DNA of 64,000 nucleotides from a virus. Lineage: Duplodnaviria; Heunggongvirae; Uroviricota; Caudoviricetes. The stretch lies in the IMG/VR virus record IMGVR_UViG_2703718817_000003; one strand, 5' to 3'. The translations under genes and the position numbers were made by a program. The notes below the pieces were generated by a model, which saw nothing but the letters and a program-made list of their open reading frames with translations, did not search any database and had not been told where the DNA came from. The first letter of the stretch is position 1. Each line of letters begins with the position of its first letter. Positions 2 through 42,132 of the stretch are shown here, one piece after another.

Positions 2-208
2 CGCAACCTGGTCAACGCTTACCGGATACCCACTGATACGCATGAGTTTTTGACGCCAGAGGGGGTATTGTCGCGTCGTACTATTGTGGCCTTATCTCCC
101 TTCATGAATGCCTTTACCCTGATGATGTCGGAGGCTGAACACCGAGGAAAACGCTGGTATCACCCAAGGATGGGACAATTCCAGGTGATCGGTTGGGGAG
201 GCGAGTGA
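2..208 (+). CDS. 3' fragment of a Rha-family regulator/antirepressor-like gene, truncated by the window edge; ends at TGA 206-208
   Basis: Frame-2 translation RNLVNAYRIPTDTHEFLTPEG...KRWYHPRMGQFQ parallels the C-terminal part of the 41191-42132 protein (CRNLVNAYRIPTDTHEFLTPDG...KRWYHPRMGLFQ); DNA roughly 80-90% identical by eye. Confidence 0.5.
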   Translation, partial: RNLVNAYRIPTDTHEFLTPEGVLSRRTIVALSPFMNAFTLMMSEAEHRGKRWYHPRMGQFQVIGWGGE

Positions 209-405
209 TGGACATCATGCAGGCGGTAAAAAAAATCAGGGAAGGACAGGCTGAAGTGTGCCGCCGTAAAGCATGGAGTGTTGGTATATGGATCTGGCCT
301 GATAATTGCTCTACTACCGGATGGTTTTGTATTAATGGATGCCAGATCCGGGAAGTCGATTTATCGATGGCGGATGCAGTCGGTAATGATTGGATCGTAA
401 CTTGA
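208..405 (+). CDS. Small DUF2829-like (Tad2-family-like) domain protein; ATG 208 overlaps the upstream stop (TGATG)
   Basis: ORF track 193-405 (TTG) with in-frame ATG at 208; product MDIMQAVKKIREGQAEVCRRKAWSVGIWIWPDN...NDWIVT resembles the C-terminal domain of the 41191-42132 protein and the DUF2829 pattern (K-x-RR-x-W ... DW-I-V). Confidence 0.4.
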   Translation: MDIMQAVKKIREGQAEVCRRKAWSVGIWIWPDNCSTTGWFCINGCQIREVDLSMADAVGNDWIVT

Positions 406-1059: not shown

Positions 1060-4000
1060 TTGAGGGGGCTTCCTTTGGACAAAATAATTGATTCAATTAG
1101 CCAGGCCACCAGCATTGGGGCGCTGATTGAAATTGTTAGTCGGTTGCATAAACCGCGAGCTGTAGTGACCTTTGGCGTTAAGAAAGTCGATGGCGTCAGT
1201 ATTCAGAAAACACGCCGGGCAGCAAACAACGCCGCAGTAAATCTTCTTAATTCCCTTCCGCCTGGCTTCGATGGGGCGAAATTAACTGACGAACAGCGTC
1301 AGATTCTTGCCGGGTATACCGGTGAAGGCGGCCTGACAGATGGTGAGGGCAGCCAATACGAATACTATACGCCACAGTTTATGGCAGAAGGTATATGGGA
1401 TCTCTTCGGCGACTACGGTATTGATAGCGGTCACGTACTGGAACCGTCAGCAGGCACAGGTATTTTCCAGGAGACAAAACGGCAGGGCATGATAATGACC
1501 AGCGCCGAACTGTCTCCGATCTCCGGTCGAATAAACCAGCTTTTGCACCCGGAAGATGATGTGAATATCGGGGCGTTTGAGGCGCTGGCGGCGAAAGATG
1601 CAATGTATGACCACGCAGTTGGTAACGTACCGTTTGGCGAAGGGCGTTCCGGCGTCGCCGGGCTTGATCCGGCATATGCAAACGAGAAGAACGTTGGCAA
1701 TTATTTTGTGCTGCGCACGATCGACAAGGTTAAGCCTGGTGGACTAATTGTATTGGTGGTGCCGAATGGCATGACCGATGGTACGAAATACAAAAAATTG
1801 CGCGATAAAGTCAGCCGTAAAGCGGAATTTTTGGGCGCGCATCGTATGCCTTCTGGTACGTTCAGCGAATCCGGTACAGATACCGTGGTGGACGTATGGG
1901 TATTGCGTAAACACCCGGAAACCTTCCTGGAGATGATCCCCGACACGGATGATGCAACGCTCAAATCGGCAAACGTCCTTTGGGATACCTTCCTCAAAGG
2001 GAAATGGTTTACAACCGAAGGGAAGCGATTTGTTTACGGCGACATGGAACGCACCAGCTTCCGCAATACCCTGGTGGTGAAAAAGGACGGTCGTGTATCC
2101 AATGAGTCGATGAAAACCGCGTTATCACGCCGCTTTGAAAGCCGTATTAATTGGGATTTGCTCGGAGTAACTACCCAGGCATGGCAGGGCGCAAAAGTAG
2201 GGGATAAGCGTCTTGTAGGCGGTATCTGGCATGAGTTTGATGGCCTGAAATGGGTTAAGGACACGACAACCAAATCCTCCGCGCTTGATGTAAGTCGATA
2301 TGGTGTTTCGACGTTTGGCGATCTGCAGATCGCGTTCCAGTCAACAAACGGGATTCTGGCTTTGTCATGGGACCAGATATCGGCGATCGCGTCCGACTAT
2401 CCATCGGTTGTCAGTGATGAAGTGGCAGCAATGATTCGCTTTGCTGGCAAACAGCGAGAAAAAGACAGGGAGCGCGTTATGCGCGGTGCACTGATAGGTC
2501 AGTTGATCAACAAGGCACTTGATTTGCGTAACCTGGGGGTGAACGTTGATGACAAACTGGCAGATGCATCCCGCCTGGCGGCAGCAGAAGTTGCGAAGTA
2601 TGGACCACCGCACGCGATTAAGCTGAATGGGCTTGCAGAAGCTGGAGCTAAAAACTGGATGACGTTCACTGGCAATGTGAAACAGGATGGTTCCACTTCT
2701 GACCTTCTGGCAGGGCGACTTGATGTAACGGATGGTGCTGCCGGTATTGACTTTACACGTCCGGAACAAGTGATAGCACATCTTTTCAGTGATGTAGCCC
2801 TTTATCCTATAACGCTGGGCGACTTTCGTGAGGCGTTTGCTGGTGAACTGCCAGAGGACGACGACGCGGCCCTTGAATACCTGGCGAAATTTGATGATAT
2901 CGCTATTGATGGGTATGGCTGCCTGCTGCCGATGGACCGCGCCACCAGCGGCGATATTGCAACCAAAACAACATTGCTGGTGGGCTGGCGTGATGCGTCA
3001 ACAGGTGAACAGAAAGCGAACTTTGAGCGTCAGTTGGCGAAAATCGAAGAGAAACGCATTTTCACGCCACTAAATAAAGTCACCGTTAATCTGAACGCCC
3101 GCTGGCTGGATCGCCGCTTGATAAAAGAGTTCCTGGCAGAGCAGGGCTATGACGAGTTTAAGTACACTGAACCTGATCTGAAGGTCGTCGATGGCATTCT
3201 GGTATCTCCGGACGATTACGAAGGTAAGGACGGGGTATTTACCGGCTATCAGCTACGAACCGTAAACGGCAAAAACGGGAATGAGTTCAAGAAGGCCAAC
3301 AATAAAGACGGCTTCCTGAACCAGTTAGAAAACTACCTGAACGGTGTTAAACCGCGTGGGCAGAACGCTAACGAGTACCTGGATAAAATTGCTCAACTGG
3401 AAGTTAGCTTTAACGACTGGTTACGCACCCACCCGCAGGCGGATCAGATAGCCCGTGACTATAACGACGCATTCAATGGCTTCATTCCGTTCACGCACTC
3501 TAACGCACCGCTTGGCCTGGAAGGGATTAGTGGAAAGCGCATTCCTCTGACTTATCAGAATGAAGAAGTTCGTCGCTTGTCAGAAGATGGGCGCGGCATC
3601 ATGGGATTTGGTACCGGGCTGGGTAAAACCACGACCGCGCTTGCGCTTGAGGCGTATAACTTCGAAACAGGTCGTACTAAACGCACGTGTATTGTTGTTC
3701 CGAAGGCGGTTTATCAGAACTGGTATCACGAGGCACAGAGCTTCTACAGTGCTGATGCCTTCGCCAATATGATGTTTATCGGTCTGGATGAAGTTCGTGA
3801 TGAAGACGGCAATATTCTGACCGCGCCGGTGCTTGATGAAAATGGCGAACCCCGCCTCGACAGTAACGGGCAGCCTCTTACCAGAAATGTTGTGAAAGAG
3901 TCCGCCAGCGCCGTTATCGTTCAGCGCATGAACATGATCCCGTCGTCAAATTGGCGAACGGTCATCATGACAAAAGAACAATTCGCGTCTATCCCGCTAC

Positions 4001-7000
4001 GAGAAAAAACCATCGAGGAGAACTCACAGCAAGCTGTCTTTAATGCTGTGGAAATGGGGCGTCTTGACCTGGCGTCTGGTAAACACCGTGATGCGCAGAA
4101 GAAGAACAAGATTAAGGATCAGGCCGCGAATACCGGTACAACGAAGAAGCAGAATATCCCGTACTTTGAGGATATGAACTTCGATAGCGTGATTGCCGAC
4201 GAGGGGCATAACTACCGCAACTCCTTTAATGCCGGGCGTGAAGCGGGACAACTGGCATATTTGCCTAACCCGGCAGTATCCAAGATGGCCCGCGACATGG
4301 CTGTAAAAGCTGCGTACATGATGAAACGCAACAACGGGCGTGGTGTAGTCATGCTGACGGCAACTCCGCTGGTGAACAGTCCGATTGATGCCTTCAACAT
4401 GCTGTCTACTGTCATTCCGCAGGAAGAGTGGATGCGCATGGGCATTATTACGCCGGATGATTTCGTTCGCGTGTTCGGCAAAACAGCCACAGTTCAGGTT
4501 CAGAAAATTTCCGGTGAGGTGGAAGAGAAGCAGGGGCTGGTGGGCTTCCAGAACCTTGATGGTCTGCGTGGTATTTTCCACCGTTGGACCACTCTGAAGA
4601 CTGCCGCAGATGTCGGAGCGACGGTTAAAATTCCCGACATCATCGAGAACACCTTGCAGATCCCGATGACAGGGGAGCAGGAGGCTGCTTATGAAGAGCT
4701 TCGTAAGCGTGCTCAGGAGTTAAGTCGCAATGATGAGCTGACAGTCGATGAAAACGGGCATATCACTAACGACAAACCGGATGATTTCATCTTCTCCATC
4801 ATCCGCGACATGGATAAGGTTGCTATAGATCCGGATCTGTATGCCAGTGCGATTACATTCCAGTTCCCCGTTGAGCTTGCAGACAAGGTAAAAGCTATTG
4901 CGGATGCCCTGCCAAAAGTCGCAGGCGGTAAAGTGGCAGATGATGCAGACGAGGCCGAAGAAGACGGCGCTGGTGGACTGGTCAGTACGCGTACCAGCAA
5001 GGTAGTGAAGACCACCTTTAGTGAACATCCGGCGCATGTTGAAATACGCGCCAGCATTGAACTGGAAGCTGAAATACTGAAGGCCATTGCTGCCGCCGGG
5101 ATTGATCTGCAGCAGGTATCACACCCCATCCCGCCGAAGTATGCCGCGCTGATCGAAAACCTTCGTGAAGGTTTGAAGAACGGTAAACAAATTGTCTTCA
5201 TTGATGAAAAAGCCCAGCACCAGAAGCTGCGCCGTATTATCGCCAGTGCACTGCAAATGCCGGAGCAGGAGATAGGCATTATCAATGCGACGACCGTTAG
5301 CCAGGCTGGCGGCATCAAGCTGAAGAAGGTGAATAAGCCGACTGAACCTACTCCGAATAAAAACGGTGAATACAAAGAAGGGGCATGGGAAACCTACTAC
5401 AGCAAACTTGCCCAATATGAGGATTATCTCTCAGCTAAAAATGATGCTGGCCTTGAGGGTATGGAAGGCATTGCCGCCGACTATAACGAAGGGCGCACGC
5501 GCATCATTATCTGTAACAAGAAGGCTGAAGTAGGTATTAACCTGCATATCGGGACAACCGATATCCACCACCTGACACTACCCTGGACACCAGCCAGTAT
5601 CGACCAACGAAATGGGCGCGGTGCGCGCGTAGGTTCACCGCAAGAGAAGGTCAATGTTCACTACTATTGTGGCAAAGGCACATTCGACGACTTCCGTCTG
5701 GATACGCTGAAACGTAAGAAAGACTGGATCAAGATGGTGATGACCTCCGACATGTCAGAGATCGCCAATGGTGATGCGGATGATGCTGATGAACGCGCCA
5801 TTATGCTGGCGGCAAACCCGGAAGAACGCCGCGCAATCATGGCTCGCCAGGCGCAAGAGCGCGAAGAACGTCTGAAACTGAAAGCACAGCGCGAGGCCAA
5901 CAATGCTCTCGATATCTACCTGAAAGCGGCAAACGCCGCTGGAAAAGATATCGGCATGATGGAGACAGAACTGAAAAGCGCGATGGAACAGATAGAGTAT
6001 TACCAGCGAAATCTTGACGACCTGATAAAAGCGGGTACGAACAGGAATGGGCAAAAATTCGCGCTTGAGCAGTTGAGTAGCTACAGAAAACGTGCGCGGG
6101 TGCTGCGGTTTGCGATCACCAGGGCAAAAGACGCGGATACCATAATGAAACGCTCTCGTGGTGATGTGGAGCGAGCTATTAAGTCTGGTGTGCTGGATAT
6201 CAGTATCGATGTTATTCAGAACCCACAGGAATATATGCGCACTGACAAGAATATCCTGTTGCATAAAGGTAGTTATTACCGTGCAGTCATTGATGATCGC
6301 GAAACAACAGCGATTGTCCGGGTGGAAAAAATTGACGGTGAAAAAGCACAATACCTCTGCCGTATCGCCTGGCTGGATAGAGCAAGTCGTTACGCTCGAT
6401 CACCGGGGTCAATCGTTACATTGCCGTTTGACTCTGTGATTGAAGCGGTAACTTTTGAAGAGGGGGTAGCTGAATCGCGCGCAACGGCTGCGCGTGGTGT
6501 TCAGTGCCACCAGCTATCAACAATACTTACTCGCGATCAGTTCTATGATGCTATTCGCAATGGGGTAATGAATGTTATTGCTGGTAAACCTGGTAATGCA
6601 TGGGGCGGTGGGTCAGCTATTAAATACTGGGCATATCGCACAGATGATGGTCAGATCGCGCTGTCATCGGCCTATGATGGCGTGATAGGCCAAAAAATCG
6701 GGCGAGCATCGGATATAGCACCTGAACGATGGATATATCCAGATGGCAACGATGAGGCGCTGAAGCGTGAAGTGGCAAAAATACAAGCCAGTGATAACCC
6801 GCTGAATATCGTGGACGGCGAGGGATTCCTCCAGGCATTGTATGGGTATGATTACATCCAGGGAATGCAGGCATGGGGCGCACAGGCAACGATGGATGAT
6901 GTTGTCCAGGAGTTCGAAAACTGGATGGCTGGGCGTGGTCTGTCAGGTCGTTCGCTTAATAAAGTCACTTCTGAAGATATTCTTAGCTTGTTCCGCAAAC

Positions 7001-7911
7001 CGTCCGGAGAAGGTCTGGAATCATTCTGGAGGACCGTGCTGGCATACCGTTTATTCAAGGGCAGAATGAAAGCCTTTAGCAATATCGATGATATTGAACG
7101 GATGTTTAATCAGGTCAAGATCGCGAAAATTAAGACGAAGATCGAAAAAACACGTTCTGCGCTGGTGGCCTGGCGCGATGCATTGTTTGAGCAATATAAA
7201 TCACTCAGTGATGCAGATGGATGGGCGGCATTGGAACAGTTGGCGAATAATGGGGTAGATGGAGCGAAACTCGCCATAGTCCAGGCTGATAACCCCCTGG
7301 AATCACCGGCAGCACAGTGGATTAAGGTGGGGGCTGTCATCAATGCATTTGATGAAAAACACATTAGTAAGGACGATTTTGCTGATGCTGTTTCTGTTAA
7401 TCGCCTGGTAGAAATGGCTACCCGCCGCGCCCGTGAGTTGAAAGACGGTGACTATGTGAATGAGTTGCCGGATGCGCTCAAATCAGCAACGTGGCAAGAC
7501 TATGTATCGCTGAAAAACGGCGGGGCCACCGAATCAGAGATCGCGGAAAGGCTTGAACAGGCTGAAAGCAAAAGAGAAGAGCAGGCGGCAGTGGCTGAAG
7601 CCAGAGCTGATGAAGCGGCGAATGATGACTATATCATTGTGGTTAATGATAAGCCGATTCGCGCTAAGGCGCGTGTTCGCGGGCGCTGGTGGAGTGTCAG
7701 CGAGGACGTCGGTGCGGTTTATCTCATTGCCGACCAACCTGGTTCCTCGACAATACGGAACGCCAAAGACGCGATTAAGAAGATTGGCGGGCGTTTCTGG
7801 AATTTTGAAGCAAACCCGGTTGCTGATGTGAACTTTGACCGTCCGGCATGGATGGTATCTACGCGTTACTCGGTAGATGAACTGCGTAAAATAATCGCCG
7901 ATGCGGCCTAA
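1060..7911 (+). CDS. darB: DarB-like giant antirestriction protein: N-terminal N6-adenine methyltransferase domain plus SNF2-type helicase domains
   Basis: 2283 aa ORF. AdoMet motif LEPSAGTGIF and catalytic-like NVPFGE near the N-terminus; Walker A GFGTGLGKTTTA, DEGH box (IADEGHNYRN) and helicase motif VI QRNGRGARVGS. Size and architecture match P1 DarB. Start (TTG at 1060) is uncertain. Confidence 0.8.
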   Translation: MRGLPLDKIIDSISQATSIGALIEIVSRLHKPRAVVTFGVKKVDGVSIQKTRRAANNAAVNLLNSLPPGFDGAKLTDEQRQILAGYTGEGGLTDGEGSQYEYYTPQFMAEGIWDLFGDYGIDSGHVLEPSAGTGIFQETKRQGMIMTSAELSPISGRINQLLHPEDDVNIGAFEALAAKDAMYDHAVGNVPFGEGRSGVAGLDPAYANEKNVGNYFVLRTIDKVKPGGLIVLVVPNGMTDGTKYKKLRDKVSRKAEFLGAHRMPSGTFSESGTDTVVDVWVLRKHPETFLEMIPDTDDATLKSANVLWDTFLKGKWFTTEGKRFVYGDMERTSFRNTLVVKKDGRVSNESMKTALSRRFESRINWDLLGVTTQAWQGAKVGDKRLVGGIWHEFDGLKWVKDTTTKSSALDVSRYGVSTFGDLQIAFQSTNGILALSWDQISAIASDYPSVVSDEVAAMIRFAGKQREKDRERVMRGALIGQLINKALDLRNLGVNVDDKLADASRLAAAEVAKYGPPHAIKLNGLAEAGAKNWMTFTGNVKQDGSTSDLLAGRLDVTDGAAGIDFTRPEQVIAHLFSDVALYPITLGDFREAFAGELPEDDDAALEYLAKFDDIAIDGYGCLLPMDRATSGDIATKTTLLVGWRDASTGEQKANFERQLAKIEEKRIFTPLNKVTVNLNARWLDRRLIKEFLAEQGYDEFKYTEPDLKVVDGILVSPDDYEGKDGVFTGYQLRTVNGKNGNEFKKANNKDGFLNQLENYLNGVKPRGQNANEYLDKIAQLEVSFNDWLRTHPQADQIARDYNDAFNGFIPFTHSNAPLGLEGISGKRIPLTYQNEEVRRLSEDGRGIMGFGTGLGKTTTALALEAYNFETGRTKRTCIVVPKAVYQNWYHEAQSFYSADAFANMMFIGLDEVRDEDGNILTAPVLDENGEPRLDSNGQPLTRNVVKESASAVIVQRMNMIPSSNWRTVIMTKEQFASIPLREKTIEENSQQAVFNAVEMGRLDLASGKHRDAQKKNKIKDQAANTGTTKKQNIPYFEDMNFDSVIADEGHNYRNSFNAGREAGQLAYLPNPAVSKMARDMAVKAAYMMKRNNGRGVVMLTATPLVNSPIDAFNMLSTVIPQEEWMRMGIITPDDFVRVFGKTATVQVQKISGEVEEKQGLVGFQNLDGLRGIFHRWTTLKTAADVGATVKIPDIIENTLQIPMTGEQEAAYEELRKRAQELSRNDELTVDENGHITNDKPDDFIFSIIRDMDKVAIDPDLYASAITFQFPVELADKVKAIADALPKVAGGKVADDADEAEEDGAGGLVSTRTSKVVKTTFSEHPAHVEIRASIELEAEILKAIAAAGIDLQQVSHPIPPKYAALIENLREGLKNGKQIVFIDEKAQHQKLRRIIASALQMPEQEIGIINATTVSQAGGIKLKKVNKPTEPTPNKNGEYKEGAWETYYSKLAQYEDYLSAKNDAGLEGMEGIAADYNEGRTRIIICNKKAEVGINLHIGTTDIHHLTLPWTPASIDQRNGRGARVGSPQEKVNVHYYCGKGTFDDFRLDTLKRKKDWIKMVMTSDMSEIANGDADDADERAIMLAANPEERRAIMARQAQEREERLKLKAQREANNALDIYLKAANAAGKDIGMMETELKSAMEQIEYYQRNLDDLIKAGTNRNGQKFALEQLSSYRKRARVLRFAITRAKDADTIMKRSRGDVERAIKSGVLDISIDVIQNPQEYMRTDKNILLHKGSYYRAVIDDRETTAIVRVEKIDGEKAQYLCRIAWLDRASRYARSPGSIVTLPFDSVIEAVTFEEGVAESRATAARGVQCHQLSTILTRDQFYDAIRNGVMNVIAGKPGNAWGGGSAIKYWAYRTDDGQIALSSAYDGVIGQKIGRASDIAPERWIYPDGNDEALKREVAKIQASDNPLNIVDGEGFLQALYGYDYIQGMQAWGAQATMDDVVQEFENWMAGRGLSGRSLNKVTSEDILSLFRKPSGEGLESFWRTVLAYRLFKGRMKAFSNIDDIERMFNQVKIAKIKTKIEKTRSALVAWRDALFEQYKSLSDADGWAALEQLANNGVDGAKLAIVQADNPLESPAAQWIKVGAVINAFDEKHISKDDFADAVSVNRLVEMATRRARELKDGDYVNELPDALKSATWQDYVSLKNGGATESEIAERLEQAESKREEQAAVAEARADEAANDDYIIVVNDKPIRAKARVRGRWWSVSEDVGAVYLIADQPGSSTIRNAKDAIKKIGGRFWNFEANPVADVNFDRPAWMVSTRYSVDELRKIIADAA

Positions 7912-13949: not shown

Positions 13950-14525
13950 ATGTTAACGGCGAACGATAACGCGTATTCAGAAGATGATCTCGTTTTGAGT
14001 GACTTTATAGGGCGACGAGAATGCTGGACGCAAAAGCGCGAGGAGCTTTATGCAGCGTTAGTTCGTAAAGGCGTCAACATCGAAACCGCACAGAACGGTG
14101 ATATGACAGTGGTAAGTGTTGGACTGCACGGCGTAAGCGTGTCAGCAATCAATCATGAGCCGTACATTGCGTTATCCGAGTCAATGGTAAGGTTAGTTAA
14201 GTTCCTGAAGTACACAGAAGCGAATAACGTGCTCATCGCCAAAAAGAACATCCCGTTCTCATCGGCCTTTTACTGGATGATGAAGGGGCTTGATGCCCGG
14301 CGAACATCATGGCCTAAAGGGAGCTATATATCGATGCTCCGTGGCAGTGTTGGCAGCAAAGAAAAGCTCGTCGAATTCCTGCCGGAAGAGGCATTCGATA
14401 TTGTTGAAGGTTGTGATGTGATGGTTATGCCTCGCCTGGTAATGATGAATGGGGATTTACAGGCACAGACAGACTGGTTTGCAACTGGTGTTGATATTAT
14501 CGCTACTGACTGGGAGGTTTTTTGA
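13950..14525 (+). CDS. hypothetical protein with C-terminal DUF2829-like domain
   Basis: 191 aa; C-terminal FSSAFYWMMKGLDARRTSWPKGSY...TDWFATGVDIIATDWEVF has the W...RR..W...DW-x-V pattern. Confidence 0.5.
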   Translation: MLTANDNAYSEDDLVLSDFIGRRECWTQKREELYAALVRKGVNIETAQNGDMTVVSVGLHGVSVSAINHEPYIALSESMVRLVKFLKYTEANNVLIAKKNIPFSSAFYWMMKGLDARRTSWPKGSYISMLRGSVGSKEKLVEFLPEEAFDIVEGCDVMVMPRLVMMNGDLQAQTDWFATGVDIIATDWEVF

Positions 14526-19545: not shown

Positions 19546-19575
19546 AACTTTAAATAATTGGCATTATTTAAAGTT
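19546..19575. other. lox-like recombination site candidate (perfect 13-4-13 palindrome, readable as 11-8-11)
   Basis: AACTTTAAATAAT-TGGC-ATTATTTAAAGTT, 155 bp upstream of the Cre-like gene; arm AACTTTAAATA matches 8 of 11 positions of the loxP arm AACTTCGTATA. Confidence 0.4.
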
Positions 19576-19728
19576 AGGCTATAATCTCCAGTAAACAGGT
19601 AGTATTGACAAGGATGAAAAATCATGCCTCGAATCAAAGGCTTGAATTTTGAAAATTAACTTATAACTACCCTGTCAGTTTTCTATTTTTCATGTAGCGT
19701 TATCTGTATATAGAGGTTTAATAGTTTC

Positions 19729-21174: not shown

Positions 21175-21659
21175 AAACTTACTACCCATCTCTGAACTGC
21201 TATCCAACCACTAATCCTGAGCTGTCAGGGAAACTTCTGTCCCTCCTGGCTGATAGTCCTGATGAATGGCATAAGCCTGGTGATATCAACACACAGTTCC
21301 CTGAGTACGGGTGTATCCGCACCCGAAATGAGCTGAAGAACCTCATTGCTCACGGTTTTGTCCGTCACCGTAGCGGGAAAGGCTATCAGTTGGCTATCCC
21401 ACAAGGAGAGGCAAGAGAACTCTTTGGCTATCGAGAAAGCCAGACGCAAGCGCGGGTGATCGCAGAAATTATCCGTAATGGCAGCGTCTATGCCCGCAAA
21501 TTCTGGCTGTCTGGCGGTGGCGATGCATCACAGTTCTTGCGTGCTGTGCGATCGCTGGAGGAACAAGGTGTAATCGAGAATACCTGCGTCTCCGTTCCGA
21601 CCGCTCCGCATATCAAACGCCGGATTTATACATTTACCCGGAGAGCTAAAAAGCAATGA
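21171..21659 (+). CDS. hypothetical protein
   Basis: 162 aa ORF, 4-nt overlaps with both neighbours. Confidence 0.5.
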   Translation: MKTYYPSLNCYPTTNPELSGKLLSLLADSPDEWHKPGDINTQFPEYGCIRTRNELKNLIAHGFVRHRSGKGYQLAIPQGEARELFGYRESQTQARVIAEIIRNGSVYARKFWLSGGGDASQFLRAVRSLEEQGVIENTCVSVPTAPHIKRRIYTFTRRAKKQ

Positions 21660-22150
21660 TTAACGTGAAAGTGAAACGCCTTCATCCGGCGGCAAAACTC
21701 CCCGTTTACGCCACCGCCGGATCGGCGGCGATGGATTTTGTTGCTGTTGAAATAACGCCTGGTATCGATAGCAATGGCGCTATTTCCTCAAGCTGGTGGG
21801 TGCATACCGGCCTCGCTATGGCGATCCCTCCTGGCTGGTGTCTGAAACTTTATCCTCGTTCCGGATTGGGCTGCAAAAAGCATACGCGCCTGGCTAACTG
21901 CGTAGGAATTATCGACGCCGATTATCGCGGTGAAATCATGGCAAAACTGATTACAGATCCTGGTGGTGAAGGTGTTTGCCTCAAGCCTGGAATGGCGGTC
22001 ATGCAAGGCATTTTTGAGCGTGTTGAACCGGTATCGCTGGTAGAAGTTGATGAACTCGATGAAACAGAGCGAGGTGCTGGTGGCTTTGGTAGCACATCGG
22101 AAGACCGCATTGAAATCAAGCGTACACCGCTTCAGTACGAAAAGTTTTAA
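21656..22150 (+). CDS. dut: dUTP diphosphatase (dUTPase)
   Basis: 164 aa; motif 3 GIIDADYRGEI and C-terminal motif RGAGGFGSTS. Confidence 0.8.
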   Translation: MINVKVKRLHPAAKLPVYATAGSAAMDFVAVEITPGIDSNGAISSSWWVHTGLAMAIPPGWCLKLYPRSGLGCKKHTRLANCVGIIDADYRGEIMAKLITDPGGEGVCLKPGMAVMQGIFERVEPVSLVEVDELDETERGAGGFGSTSEDRIEIKRTPLQYEKF

Positions 22151-22164
22151 GTAGAGGAAAGATT

Positions 22165-22851
22165 ATGGCCAGCACTTTTCAGGTGTTCCCCAAATACAAA
22201 AGCCACAGCATCATTCGGGCATCGAAAATCAAAGATATTGTTATTGTCGGCGAAGCTTATGCGCCCATTTTTGGCAGTATCGAAGTCGTGGAGCCAAAAG
22301 GAATGACGCTTCGTGTTGATGGTGTGTTCTTGGAAAAATTCCGACCGCAAATAGGAGGATATCTCGTCACTGCTGAAAATGGCTATCTGGTCTATGTGCC
22401 AGAGAAAGCATTTGAAAAATGCTATAGCCGGGTTAACGACGCCTCCGAAAATGGGGTATCGCTCAGCATTGAAGGTCACAATGGGGTGACATTCATTACA
22501 GCCAGGGACGTAACTATTTCTGCAGGCGGTATCGCTACTCTACAAGAAGAAATCGACCTTGAAGCAGCCGACTTTTCTGACGCGCTGATGTGGCTGAAGG
22601 ATGGCAAGAAAGTTGCCCGGCGCGGGTGGAATGGCGAAAACCAATTCTGCTGGCTGGTTCCAGACAAACAGGGCGCTTCAAGACTAACCCCTATAAAACA
22701 TGCCATCAATGGAGAGCTTGAAATCAATTTCGACTCTCCTCTTGCTCCTTATGGTACGCATTTCGCTTTGAAAAATGCACAAGGTGTAGTTGTTCCGTGG
22801 GTGCCTTCAGTTGGCGACCTGCTGGCCTGTGACTGGTTTGTTGTGGAGTGA
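22165..22851 (+). CDS. Two-domain protein with C-terminal DUF2829 (Tad2-family-like) domain
   Basis: 228 aa; C-terminal FSDALMWLKDGKKVARRGWNGENQFCWLV...VVPWVPSVGDLLACDWFVVE matches the DUF2829 pattern as recalled. Confidence 0.55.
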   Translation: MASTFQVFPKYKSHSIIRASKIKDIVIVGEAYAPIFGSIEVVEPKGMTLRVDGVFLEKFRPQIGGYLVTAENGYLVYVPEKAFEKCYSRVNDASENGVSLSIEGHNGVTFITARDVTISAGGIATLQEEIDLEAADFSDALMWLKDGKKVARRGWNGENQFCWLVPDKQGASRLTPIKHAINGELEINFDSPLAPYGTHFALKNAQGVVVPWVPSVGDLLACDWFVVE

Positions 22852-40975: not shown

Positions 40976-41191
40976 ATGGCTACTATCCCCACCCCAACTC
41001 ATTCTGAATTTATCTGGCGTTTCTATTCCTGCCAAAAACACCTCTATATCTGCGTCATGGCTGCTACCGAAGCAGAAGCGCGCTCATACCTTCCCGAAGA
41101 ACCCTGCATTTTTGCTGCTCGCTTCACTCTTGATGCGATGGAGATCCTCAATTACTGGAATCTGCCGATGAACTGCGTGGAGGTGCACTGA
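40976..41191 (+). CDS. hypothetical small protein
   Basis: 71 aa ORF with AAAGGAGG Shine-Dalgarno; coupled to the next gene. Confidence 0.45.
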   Translation: MATIPTPTHSEFIWRFYSCQKHLYICVMAATEAEARSYLPEEPCIFAARFTLDAMEILNYWNLPMNCVEVH

Positions 41192-42132
41192 TGAATCTGT
41201 CCATCTCTCAAAAAGCGACAATGACCAGTATTGAAATCGCGGAACTGGTAGGTAAGCGTCATGATAATGTGAAGCGTACCATTGAAGTATTAACTAAAGG
41301 TGGTGTCATTCAATTTCCTCAAATTGAGGAAATTGAAAATAAACAATCAGTTGGCCCTCGTCGATTTTCCAAGGCTTACATCTTTGAAGGCGAACAAGGC
41401 AAGCGTGACAGTATCATTGTCGTTGCGCAGCTCTCTCCGGAATTCACCGCCCGGCTGGTGGACCGCTGGCGCGAACTGGAGAATGCCAGGGGACCGTTAA
41501 AATCAAAAGCCGAAATCCTGGCTGAAATGGCGCAAATGCATCTTGAGCATGAACGCCGGATCAACGCTGTTAATGCCCAGGTAGCCGAAGTATCGGCACA
41601 AGTGTCCAAAGTCGCTGAAACCGTCGAGCAGATCAAGAAAGGCAACATACCAGAAGGTTACATTGGCTATCGCCAGTTAGCGGCGAAATGCGGCCTGACT
41701 GAAGCCAAATGCCGCAACCTGGTCAACGCTTACCGGATCCCCACAGATACGCATGAGTTTTTGACTCCCGACGGTTTGCTTGCGCGACGCTCAATTGTGG
41801 CCCTGGCCCCCTTCCGGAAAGCCTTTAAGCAGGTGATGTCGGAGGCAGAACCACGTAACAAACGCTGGTATCATCCCAGGATGGGGCTATTTCAGGCCAT
41901 TCACCATCCTGTGCCTGAAAGTCCAAAGGCAAACCTGTCGTTGCATACCGCCAGAGAGAAGATTAAAACAGGGTATGCAACCGTATGCCGTCGAGCATCC
42001 TGGCCTGAAAGTGTCTGGGTATGGCCCGAAAGAGGCTCACGGAAAAACTGGCGCACCATTCGCGACGGCAAGATCTGTGCGATTGATTTACAGCCAGAAG
42101 ATGTAGCAGCGACCGACTGGATTGTTAGTTAA
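41191..42132 (+). CDS. Rha-family phage regulatory protein (antirepressor-like) fused to a C-terminal DUF2829-like domain
   Basis: 313 aa; N-terminal TSIEIAELVGKRHDNVKRTIEVL matches the Rha signature; central coiled coil; C-terminal ...VCRRASWPESVWVWPE...ATDWIVS. Confidence 0.6.
   Translation: MNLSISQKATMTSIEIAELVGKRHDNVKRTIEVLTKGGVIQFPQIEEIENKQSVGPRRFSKAYIFEGEQGKRDSIIVVAQLSPEFTARLVDRWRELENARGPLKSKAEILAEMAQMHLEHERRINAVNAQVAEVSAQVSKVAETVEQIKKGNIPEGYIGYRQLAAKCGLTEAKCRNLVNAYRIPTDTHEFLTPDGLLARRSIVALAPFRKAFKQVMSEAEPRNKRWYHPRMGLFQAIHHPVPESPKANLSLHTAREKIKTGYATVCRRASWPESVWVWPERGSRKNWRTIRDGKICAIDLQPEDVAATDWIVS

Follow-up and report, generated by a model that had tools for sequence, protein, structure and literature searches.

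A Tad2 domain joined to a predicted Dec-like OB module in a D6-like phage-plasmid: a candidate modular anti-defence protein

The IMG/VR virus record IMGVR_UViG_2703718817_000003 is represented here by a stretch of 64,000 nucleotides, hereafter the window, related to Escherichia phage D6. One of its genes, gene C (22165-22851, plus strand), encodes a 228-residue protein in which a Tad2/DUF2829 domain is preceded by a linker and by an OB fold that resembles the capsid decoration protein Dec of phage L. This protein is probably a modular anti-defence factor, in which a Tad2-type sponge for immune signals would be combined with an accessory OB module. An original prediction had placed DUF2829/Tad2-like domains in four open reading frames (ORFs) of the window. 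The four ORFs, named A to D in their order along the window, are all present at the positions given for them; as discussed below, A, B and D would differ from C in their roles.

The Tad2 domain of gene C

The Tad2/DUF2829 domain of C covers residues 132-228 (22558-22848, plus strand). Against the Pfam family PF11195 (Tad2-like), for which the gathering threshold is 25 bits, the protein scores 77.7 bits (E 1e-21, residues 136-227). In phmmer searches with residues 132-228, the best sequence match is ModTad2 (E 3e-14, about 35% identity), followed by SptTad2 (E 2e-9), SPO1 Tad2 (E 1e-8) and HgmTad2/AcrIIA7 (E 5e-8). An AlphaFold model, calculated for the monomer with an alignment of 34 homologues, matches the crystal structures of the SPO1, Mod, Hgm and Spt proteins (Foldseek E 6e-7 to 3e-5, TM score up to 0.88), and the order of elements expected of the Tad2 fold is found in it: α1, β1, β2, insertion, β3, β4, α3, β5. 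The five pocket residues of SPO1 Tad2, W25, N26, W73, S76 and D79, are all kept in C as W155, N156, W212, S215 and D218. Among the 34 homologues, W155, W212, S215, D218, D223 and W224 are invariant. C thus carries a bona fide Tad2/DUF2829 domain, and on every count that can be addressed with a sequence and a monomer model it appears to belong to the Tad2 family. The RR-x-W motif from which the four domains had been proposed is that of C; A, B and D have RR-x-x-W instead. Searches of NCBIfam and PADLOC gave no match for any of the four genes.

Tad2 proteins are homotetrameric sponges with pockets at the interfaces between protomers. Their ligands include 3'cADPR/gcADPR of type I Thoeris, His-ADPR of type II and N7-cADPR of type IV, as well as cyclic dinucleotides of CBASS and the cUMP and cCMP of Pycsar. 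At least seven different signals are bound by members of the family, and Thoeris I, II and IV, CBASS and Pycsar are inhibited by sequestration. A second pocket, for cyclic dinucleotides or cUMP, is built by a variable insertion between β2 and β3. Since the Tad2 domain of C is a real one and all the core pocket residues are kept, an anti-Thoeris or anti-signalling sponge is the best reading of the protein. By analogy with the solved Tad2 proteins, the domain would assemble into a homotetramer with inter-protomer pockets. These pockets would bind and sequester ADP-ribose-derived signals made by TIR proteins, namely 3'cADPR/gcADPR, His-ADPR or N7-cADPR, and Thoeris-type effectors would stay off. 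The β2-β3 insertion may supply a second, cyclic-nucleotide pocket. The OB module would be an accessory unit, for which a second ligand site, a part in assembly or tethering, and capsid binding are candidate roles.

The insertion of C (residues 166-198, 22660-22758, plus strand), located between β2 and β3, is the most variable part of the protein. Identity was compared by region in 21 close homologues carried on phage-plasmids of E. coli and Salmonella. The mean pairwise identity is 0.89 and 0.80 in the Tad2 core, 0.62 in the OB module and 0.38 in the insertion. Among sister phage-plasmids, the segment comprising the pocket and the insertion occurs as three alleles. Allele I, carried by the window, is the long form and the longest of the three; allele II resembles the insertion of ModTad2; allele III is short, and the W-N of its pocket is changed to W-K. 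Each insertion allele is found paired with several different OB alleles. The three reassorting alleles bear the mark of shuffling by recombination, with diversifying selection acting on them, and the low identity of the insertion, together with its free combination with OB alleles, is taken as evidence of an arms race. The distinct ligand specificities that had been imagined for four paralogues find a better footing in these three alleles of a single gene.

The OB module and its sponge partners

The N-terminal part of C, which the original prediction overlooked, is a small β-barrel (residues 1-92, 22165-22440, plus strand), modelled with a predicted local distance difference test (pLDDT) score of 85-90. 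It matches the Dec structure 6e3c in Foldseek (E 2e-3, probability 1.0, root-mean-square deviation 2.5 Å, 83 columns) and in phmmer (9e-4), the latter on the motif F(K/R)PxxGGYL...AFE..Y. A hidden Markov model (HMM) of the OB family reaches 4e-11 against Dec in a one-sequence search, over Dec residues 50-119, that is, into the stalk. The linker that follows in C (residues 93-131, 22441-22557, plus strand; NDASENGVSLSIEGHNGVTFITARDVTISAGGIATLQ) is β-rich and aligns to the start of this stalk. Its pLDDT of 40-47 is what would be expected of a segment folding only in an oligomer. According to PMC11398494, Dec is a capsid-bound trimer whose C-termini form a three-stranded spike. The OB module of C corresponds to phrog_11049, to which no function is assigned, and Dec to phrog_3018; no Pfam family covers the module. 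The structural model and these matches show an OB fold of the phage L Dec type at the N-terminus of C, beyond what existing annotation offers. The D6 orthologue of C, orf114 (L001:2594-3034, 146 residues), has an in-frame deletion of the OB barrel and keeps the first 20 residues or so, the linker and the Tad2 domain.

The architectures of the relatives of C were established with HMMs built here and checked with Pfam. OB+Tad2 is by far the commonest (n=62). A further module of about 85 residues, called X, stands between the two in OB+X+Tad2 (n=7), a Sequestin domain is added in OB+Tad2+Sequestin (n=3), and the four modules are united in one protein, P0094 (OB+X+Tad2+Sequestin). With the OB module alone as bait, 8 viral and 4 genomic loci were collected; because the OB alignment is narrow and the loci are few, this census is small and biased to one OB subfamily. 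It comprises OB+Tad2 in Klebsiella phage SopranoGao and in locus L012 and, at the same genome position in the sister Lastaviruses (L009, L010), OB+Sequestin (PF21825, 4e-16) and OB+X+Sequestin. OB+Acb4 (PF13876, 6e-29) is encoded in a metagenome-assembled genome (MAG) of Oceanococcus (L016). In a Gilvimarinus MAG (L017), the OB module is fused to a region of 160 residues with a sub-threshold match to the Acb2/Tad1 hairpin. In all these fusions the OB module is N-terminal. Tad2, Sequestin and Acb4, all of them established sponge families, are thus repeated fusion partners of the module. Free-standing OB proteins of 91-103 residues also exist, for instance gp05 of Ralstonia phage GP4 and the protein of locus L011, where a free-standing Tad2 gene is found 3 kb from the OB gene. 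Among the neighbours of free-standing OB genes there is a PF24729 Acb2/Tad1-hairpin protein (4e-15). A phmmer search with the C-terminus of the L017 protein and PDB searches with the two best candidates, the products of L013:4021-4251 and L019:3973-4194, made to find the source of this match, gave nothing significant.

Some side observations may be added on these loci. The products of L013:4021-4251 and L019:3973-4194, from two unrelated MAG or viral loci, have 73-76 residues, carry the pattern YHAP..Q...Y..IR... and are encoded 0.02-0.6 kb downstream of the OB gene. Module X is found between OB and Tad2 or Sequestin in P0086, P0101, P0094, P0061 and L010:4001-4876 (residues 87-230), with the motif ...GD(W/Y)(I/L)I.G.KGE.Y.CKPDIF..TYEP. 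Its only Pfam match is a sub-threshold one to PGDYG (PF14083, E 0.066), matches to TPR being spurious; X may be another sponge-associated module. In P0043 (306 residues), a Phage_fiber_2 repeat (PF03406) is located N-terminal to OB+Tad2. This protein may have arisen by fusion with a tail-fibre gene, or it may be an artefact of assembly.

These fusions bring in a first rival explanation, in which the OB module itself would bind immune signals and represent a new sponge family, C being then a double sponge. We hold this view to be rather doubtful. It was through fusions to Tad2 and Acb4 that PF21825 came to be known as the sponge Sequestin, and the fusions of the OB module, with Tad2, Sequestin, Acb4 and the sub-threshold Acb2/Tad1-hairpin region, are of the same kind. 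Like sponges, the module also occurs as a short free-standing phage protein, with the PF24729 protein beside one such gene and a free-standing Tad2 gene in the vicinity of another. Furthermore, its conserved positions are rich in lysine, histidine and arginine, as in P-x-Y-K-C-H-K and K-H-x-P-x-x-G-G-Y. However, the ligand, the pocket and the oligomer of such a sponge remain hypothetical. Phage D6 dropped the OB barrel and retained the Tad2 domain, Dec, the sole characterised relative of the module, binds capsids and not nucleotides, and the constant N-terminal position would suit a generic scaffold or tether equally well. In a broader form of the idea, it may tentatively be imagined that the OB module is an uncharacterised anti-defence domain, either a sponge or a unit by which sponges are tethered to, or which masks, the structural proteins sensed by TIR or CD-NTase systems. 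It would then possibly be a common N-terminal partner of Tad2, Sequestin, Acb4 and perhaps Acb2/Tad1-like sponges, and the decoration protein Dec might, with equal reserve, be regarded as a structural offshoot or as the source of the OB family.

A second possibility is that C is a virion decoration protein of the Dec type, with the OB module bound to the capsid, the linker forming a trimeric spike and the Tad2 domain at its tip, for a purpose other than a sponge. The homology with Dec indeed spans the OB fold and enters the stalk, and the linker of C is disordered in the monomer model, like the stalk of Dec. In the Gilvimarinus prophage (L017, 2977-5701), the OB-fusion gene occupies the position of dec in phage L (L007:552-2925), upstream of the genes for the small and large terminase: it is followed by a 178-residue ORF and then by a large terminase gene whose product matches phage L gp2 (1e-61). 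In phage GP4, the gene for gp05 stands between those for the portal and the major capsid protein, and the N-terminus of P0043 is a tail-fibre repeat. Nevertheless, we judge a decoration protein improbable. The gene has its place outside the head module, in the accessory region with cre, dut and phd/doc, in D6 as well as in the window. The P1 virion is described in the literature as having no decoration protein, and the N-terminal 133 residues of C matched no P1 or P7 record. In the published capsid map of GP4, the major capsid protein gp2 and the cement protein gp1 are the sole components. The OB-Tad2 gene of SopranoGao stands among early regulators. Finally, three families of intracellular sponges have this OB module as a fusion partner, and the D6 orthologue lacks the body of the OB fold.

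Several points weigh against considering C as a Tad2-type sponge with an accessory OB module. The SPO1 residue T78, which contacts the adenine, is a glycine in C, where glutamine and valine also stand in for D67 and H71, two residues that coordinate water; because of these changes, the sequence does not tell which ligand would be bound. Residues 169-196 of the insertion are modelled with a pLDDT below 50. Dec is a trimer whereas Tad2 is a tetramer, and a trimerising stalk could be incompatible with the assembly of a sponge. In a 2025 survey of 84 sponges, Tad2 proteins also containing PF21825 or PDB 6E3C were removed. The OB-Tad2 fusions had therefore been seen by others already, and as a class they were left out of the screen; in the literature searched, no binding or defence assay on Dec-Tad2 fusions was found. 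As to A, B and D, the roles proposed for them in the next section are drawn solely from residue patterns and genomic context.

Genomic setting and the other DUF2829-like genes

The region around gene C is 82% identical to phage D6 and 96-99% identical to non-mobilizable plasmids of about 90 kb from E. coli and E. marmotae. The window and D6 have in common the order cre, two ORFs, dut, the DUF2829 gene, an isaA-like ORF and convergent doc-phd genes. Such identity and gene order lead us to consider the window as part of a D6-like phage-plasmid of the P1 family. Gene C is present in 213 of 5,426 complete E. coli genomes (about 4%), and 213 of the 220 matched places in these genomes are plasmid-borne. 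The PGAP annotation already labels it "DUF2829 domain-containing protein". The D6 equivalents of A, B, C and D are orf17, orf6, orf114 and orf82. A repeated acquisition of the domain next to DarB, methyltransferases and nucleases, as had been proposed, is not borne out, all four genes being at their D6 positions.

Gene C starts 14 nucleotides past the stop codon of dut (21656-22150, plus strand), which encodes dUTPase, and is preceded by a good ribosome-binding site, GAGGA (22154-22158). It belongs to an apparent operon made of two ORFs with no assigned function, dut, gene C and the isaA-like ORF. Upstream of the cre-like recombinase gene, a near-consensus σ70-like promoter is found at 19558-19585 (TTGGCA, 16 nucleotides, TATAAT; 11 of 12 matches), which may drive the series of genes that begins with cre, includes dut and reaches the Tad2 gene. 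It is the sole strong site of this kind in the promoter and terminator scan, which was uninformative within the operon and gave no convincing terminator ahead of the isaA-like ORF. In some E. coli plasmids, P0058 (241 residues) is a dUTPase-Tad2 fusion with no OB module; in the window the dut and Tad2 genes adjoin each other.

Genes A and D are of another nature. Gene A (208-405, plus strand) encodes 65 residues. Upstream of it, another Rha-type antirepressor gene is cut by the left edge of the window, so that its 3' end alone is present (2-208, plus strand); this second gene is 94% identical to D6 orf18. The stop codon TGA of this ant gene (206-208) overlaps the ATG of A (208-210) in the sequence TGATG (206-210), an arrangement of translational coupling, so that A cannot be called standalone as had been done. 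Gene D (41191-42132, plus strand) is preceded by an icd-like gene (40976-41191) and encodes a Rha-type antirepressor of 313 residues, whose last 65 (residues 249-313, 41935-42129) are 37% identical to A (BLAST, E 6e-16). A is 91% identical to orf17 and D 85% identical to orf82. Within D, identity to orf18 is 68% over residues 1-237, and identity to orf17 is 38% over the last 65 residues. The synteny with D6 extends to orf83-orf82 (icd-like gene, then D) and to orf19-orf18-orf17 (the split locus). Both A and D match phrog_7385 and the C-terminal end of phrog_63, "anti-repressor Ant"; D aligns with phrog_63 end to end (1.5e-60) and A with its last 50 positions. The two icd-ant loci are a natural split/fusion pair, with the terminal module separate in A and fused in D. 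Directly downstream of the split ant locus is a gene for a DarB-like methyltransferase/helicase antirestriction protein of 2,283 residues (1060-7911), as in D6 (orf15).

The relationship of the A/D module with DUF2829 is a distant one. With PF11195, A obtains about 17 bits (E 0.007-0.0095), below the threshold of 25 bits that C and B exceed, and D has no match, Pfam finding only the N-terminal Rha domain (PF09669, 3.7e-9). Weak matches to PF11195 are seen in 7 of 11 A/D relatives (best 6e-5), and hhalign aligns the A/D family with that of C over the whole domain (P 6e-4). In a model of A, of medium confidence (pLDDT 71), the secondary-structure elements follow one another as in Tad2. The comparison of structures, which for C leads to the Tad2 crystal structures, is weak for A: its top six PDB matches are all Tad2 proteins and none is significant (E 0.7, query TM score 0.53). 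A PDB sequence search with D found nothing. An exhaustive phmmer search with A against 1.8 billion representatives returned 8 matches, two of them spurious W-rich repeat proteins. Since the matches are few and an A2 profile search added only close relatives, no deep A/D alignment could be built. At the positions of W25, N26, W73, S76 and D79, A has W/S/V/S/D and D has W/P/I/Q/D, and the entire β2-β3 insertion is absent from both. From these comparisons, the A/D module may be described as a minimal, stripped-down DUF2829-like unit, A and D being paralogues of each other. Because the equivalents of W73 and N26 and the insertion are lost, we infer that the module would be an oligomerisation or partner-binding unit of Ant more likely than a sponge. 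In the literature searched, no description of the terminal module of Ant as DUF2829-like was found.

Gene B (13950-14525, plus strand) encodes 191 residues and scores 40.4 bits against PF11195 (E 4.4e-10, residues 103-190, 14256-14519). Its family is related to that of C in hhalign (P 9e-4), and a PDB sequence search gave no significant match (best 0.54). The pocket positions read W/P/W/T/D, with a proline at N26 and one extra residue in the loop. B is thereby a DUF2829 protein of a divergent kind. Its pocket is altered in part, and no function is assigned to its 100 N-terminal residues. A search for homologues returned only sequences at least 86% identical, and the B family is narrow and confined to these phage-plasmids. 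In pairwise BLAST among C, B and the A/D domains, only the relationship of A with D is detected. As C, B and A/D are mutually undetectable in this way, they form three old lineages and did not arise by recent duplication.

It follows that, of four DUF2829/Tad2-like domains, those of C and, in divergent form, of B are retained, with A below threshold and D unmatched. The proposal of a sponge is supported for C, which has the domain and keeps the core pocket residues; for a repertoire of four it is not supported, A and D being Ant modules that lack key pocket residues. There is only a slim chance that each of the four domains acts as a sponge, with ligands differing among them, even though they have a DUF2829 sequence pattern in common and Tad2 members bind so many signals. 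Such a scheme has to face the lack of W73, of N26 and of the insertion in A and D, their place in antirepressors, their poor standing in Pfam and the narrow distribution of B.

Two last readings, type I toxin-antitoxin (TA) toxins and anti-CRISPR proteins of the AcrIIA7 type, were rejected as the evidence for them is wanting, and they seem to us barely credible. E. coli is not known to have a type II-A CRISPR system, which counts against the second. HgmTad2 was first reported as AcrIIA7, but according to the literature cited for it, AcrIIA7 was never shown to bind Cas9, and its ligands are gcADPR and cGG. The first comes from the PGAP name of the B orthologue L002:13449-14024 (NZ_CP056699.1), "MW1434 family type I TA system toxin"; B matches no NCBIfam model, and a single paper mentioning MW1434 was found, on TA systems of Staphylococcus aureus, where in the portion bearing on it the name is only listed with other predicted type I toxins, no functional test being reported.

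Significance and comparison with known systems

Because gene C is common and already annotated as DUF2829, the basic finding is an ordinary one. What adds to its interest is the OB-Tad2 architecture, the association of the OB module with three sponge families and the existence of three reassorting pocket alleles. Tad2 sponges are a major route by which phages switch off Thoeris, CBASS and Pycsar, and multidomain forms have been excluded from functional surveys. A lineage carried by about 4% of complete E. coli genomes is a tractable natural example of a multidomain Tad2. It supplies three natural alleles for the mapping of ligand specificity, as well as a natural OB-deletion variant, that of phage D6. 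Should the OB module prove active, the list of anti-defence families would grow by one, and a fold used in capsid decoration would be tied to immune evasion. The case of A and D puts right an over-reading as well: a DUF2829-like motif with which an antirepressor ends is not by itself the sign of a sponge.

Among the known systems, the Rha-type Ant proteins (phrog_63) of the immI-like loci of the P1 family are those to which gene D corresponds over its full length, with the same position after an icd-like gene. The terminal module of Ant is found in the window both fused, in D, and as a separate coupled gene, A. Orthologues of C at the same position are D6 orf114, SJ46 J46_0048 and the copies of RCS47 and Ro157c2YLVW; those of D6 and Ro157c2YLVW also bear the DUF2829 label in PGAP. 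Besides its shorter length and its missing OB body, orf114 differs from C by having insertion allele II.

As for the sponges themselves, C has the same fold and the same W-N/W/S/D pocket as ModTad2, also called MoTad2, of a Myroides odoratus prophage (PDB 8V3E, 9EIB). ModTad2 has an insertion of the same kind, the one that allele II of the sister plasmids resembles. It is a single-domain protein of 88 residues, whereas C adds the 131 residues of the OB module and linker and, in allele I, a longer insertion. The ligands of ModTad2, His-ADPR, cUMP and cCMP, have been measured; C is known here from its sequence and a model. The SPO1 protein (Gp34.65; PDB 8SME/8SMF) also has the fold of C (TM score up to 0.86), and its core contacts with gcADPR are conserved, apart from the three replaced residues mentioned above. 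Its insertion is short, and stacking of F44 occludes the second pocket.

Dec (PDB 6E3C) aligns with C over the OB fold, its motif and the start of the stalk. The two proteins differ by their PHROG families, by the location of their genes, adjacent to the terminase for Dec and in an accessory operon for C, and by the presence of a Tad2 domain where Dec has the tip of its spike. The closest parallels in organization are Acb4-Tad2 of Pasteurella phage Pm86 and Tad2-Sequestin. They follow the same principle as C, a Tad2 domain and a small module in one polypeptide, and close relatives of C include OB+Tad2+Sequestin proteins. In Acb4-Tad2 and Tad2-Sequestin both partners are proven sponges, whereas the OB partner of C is a putative accessory.

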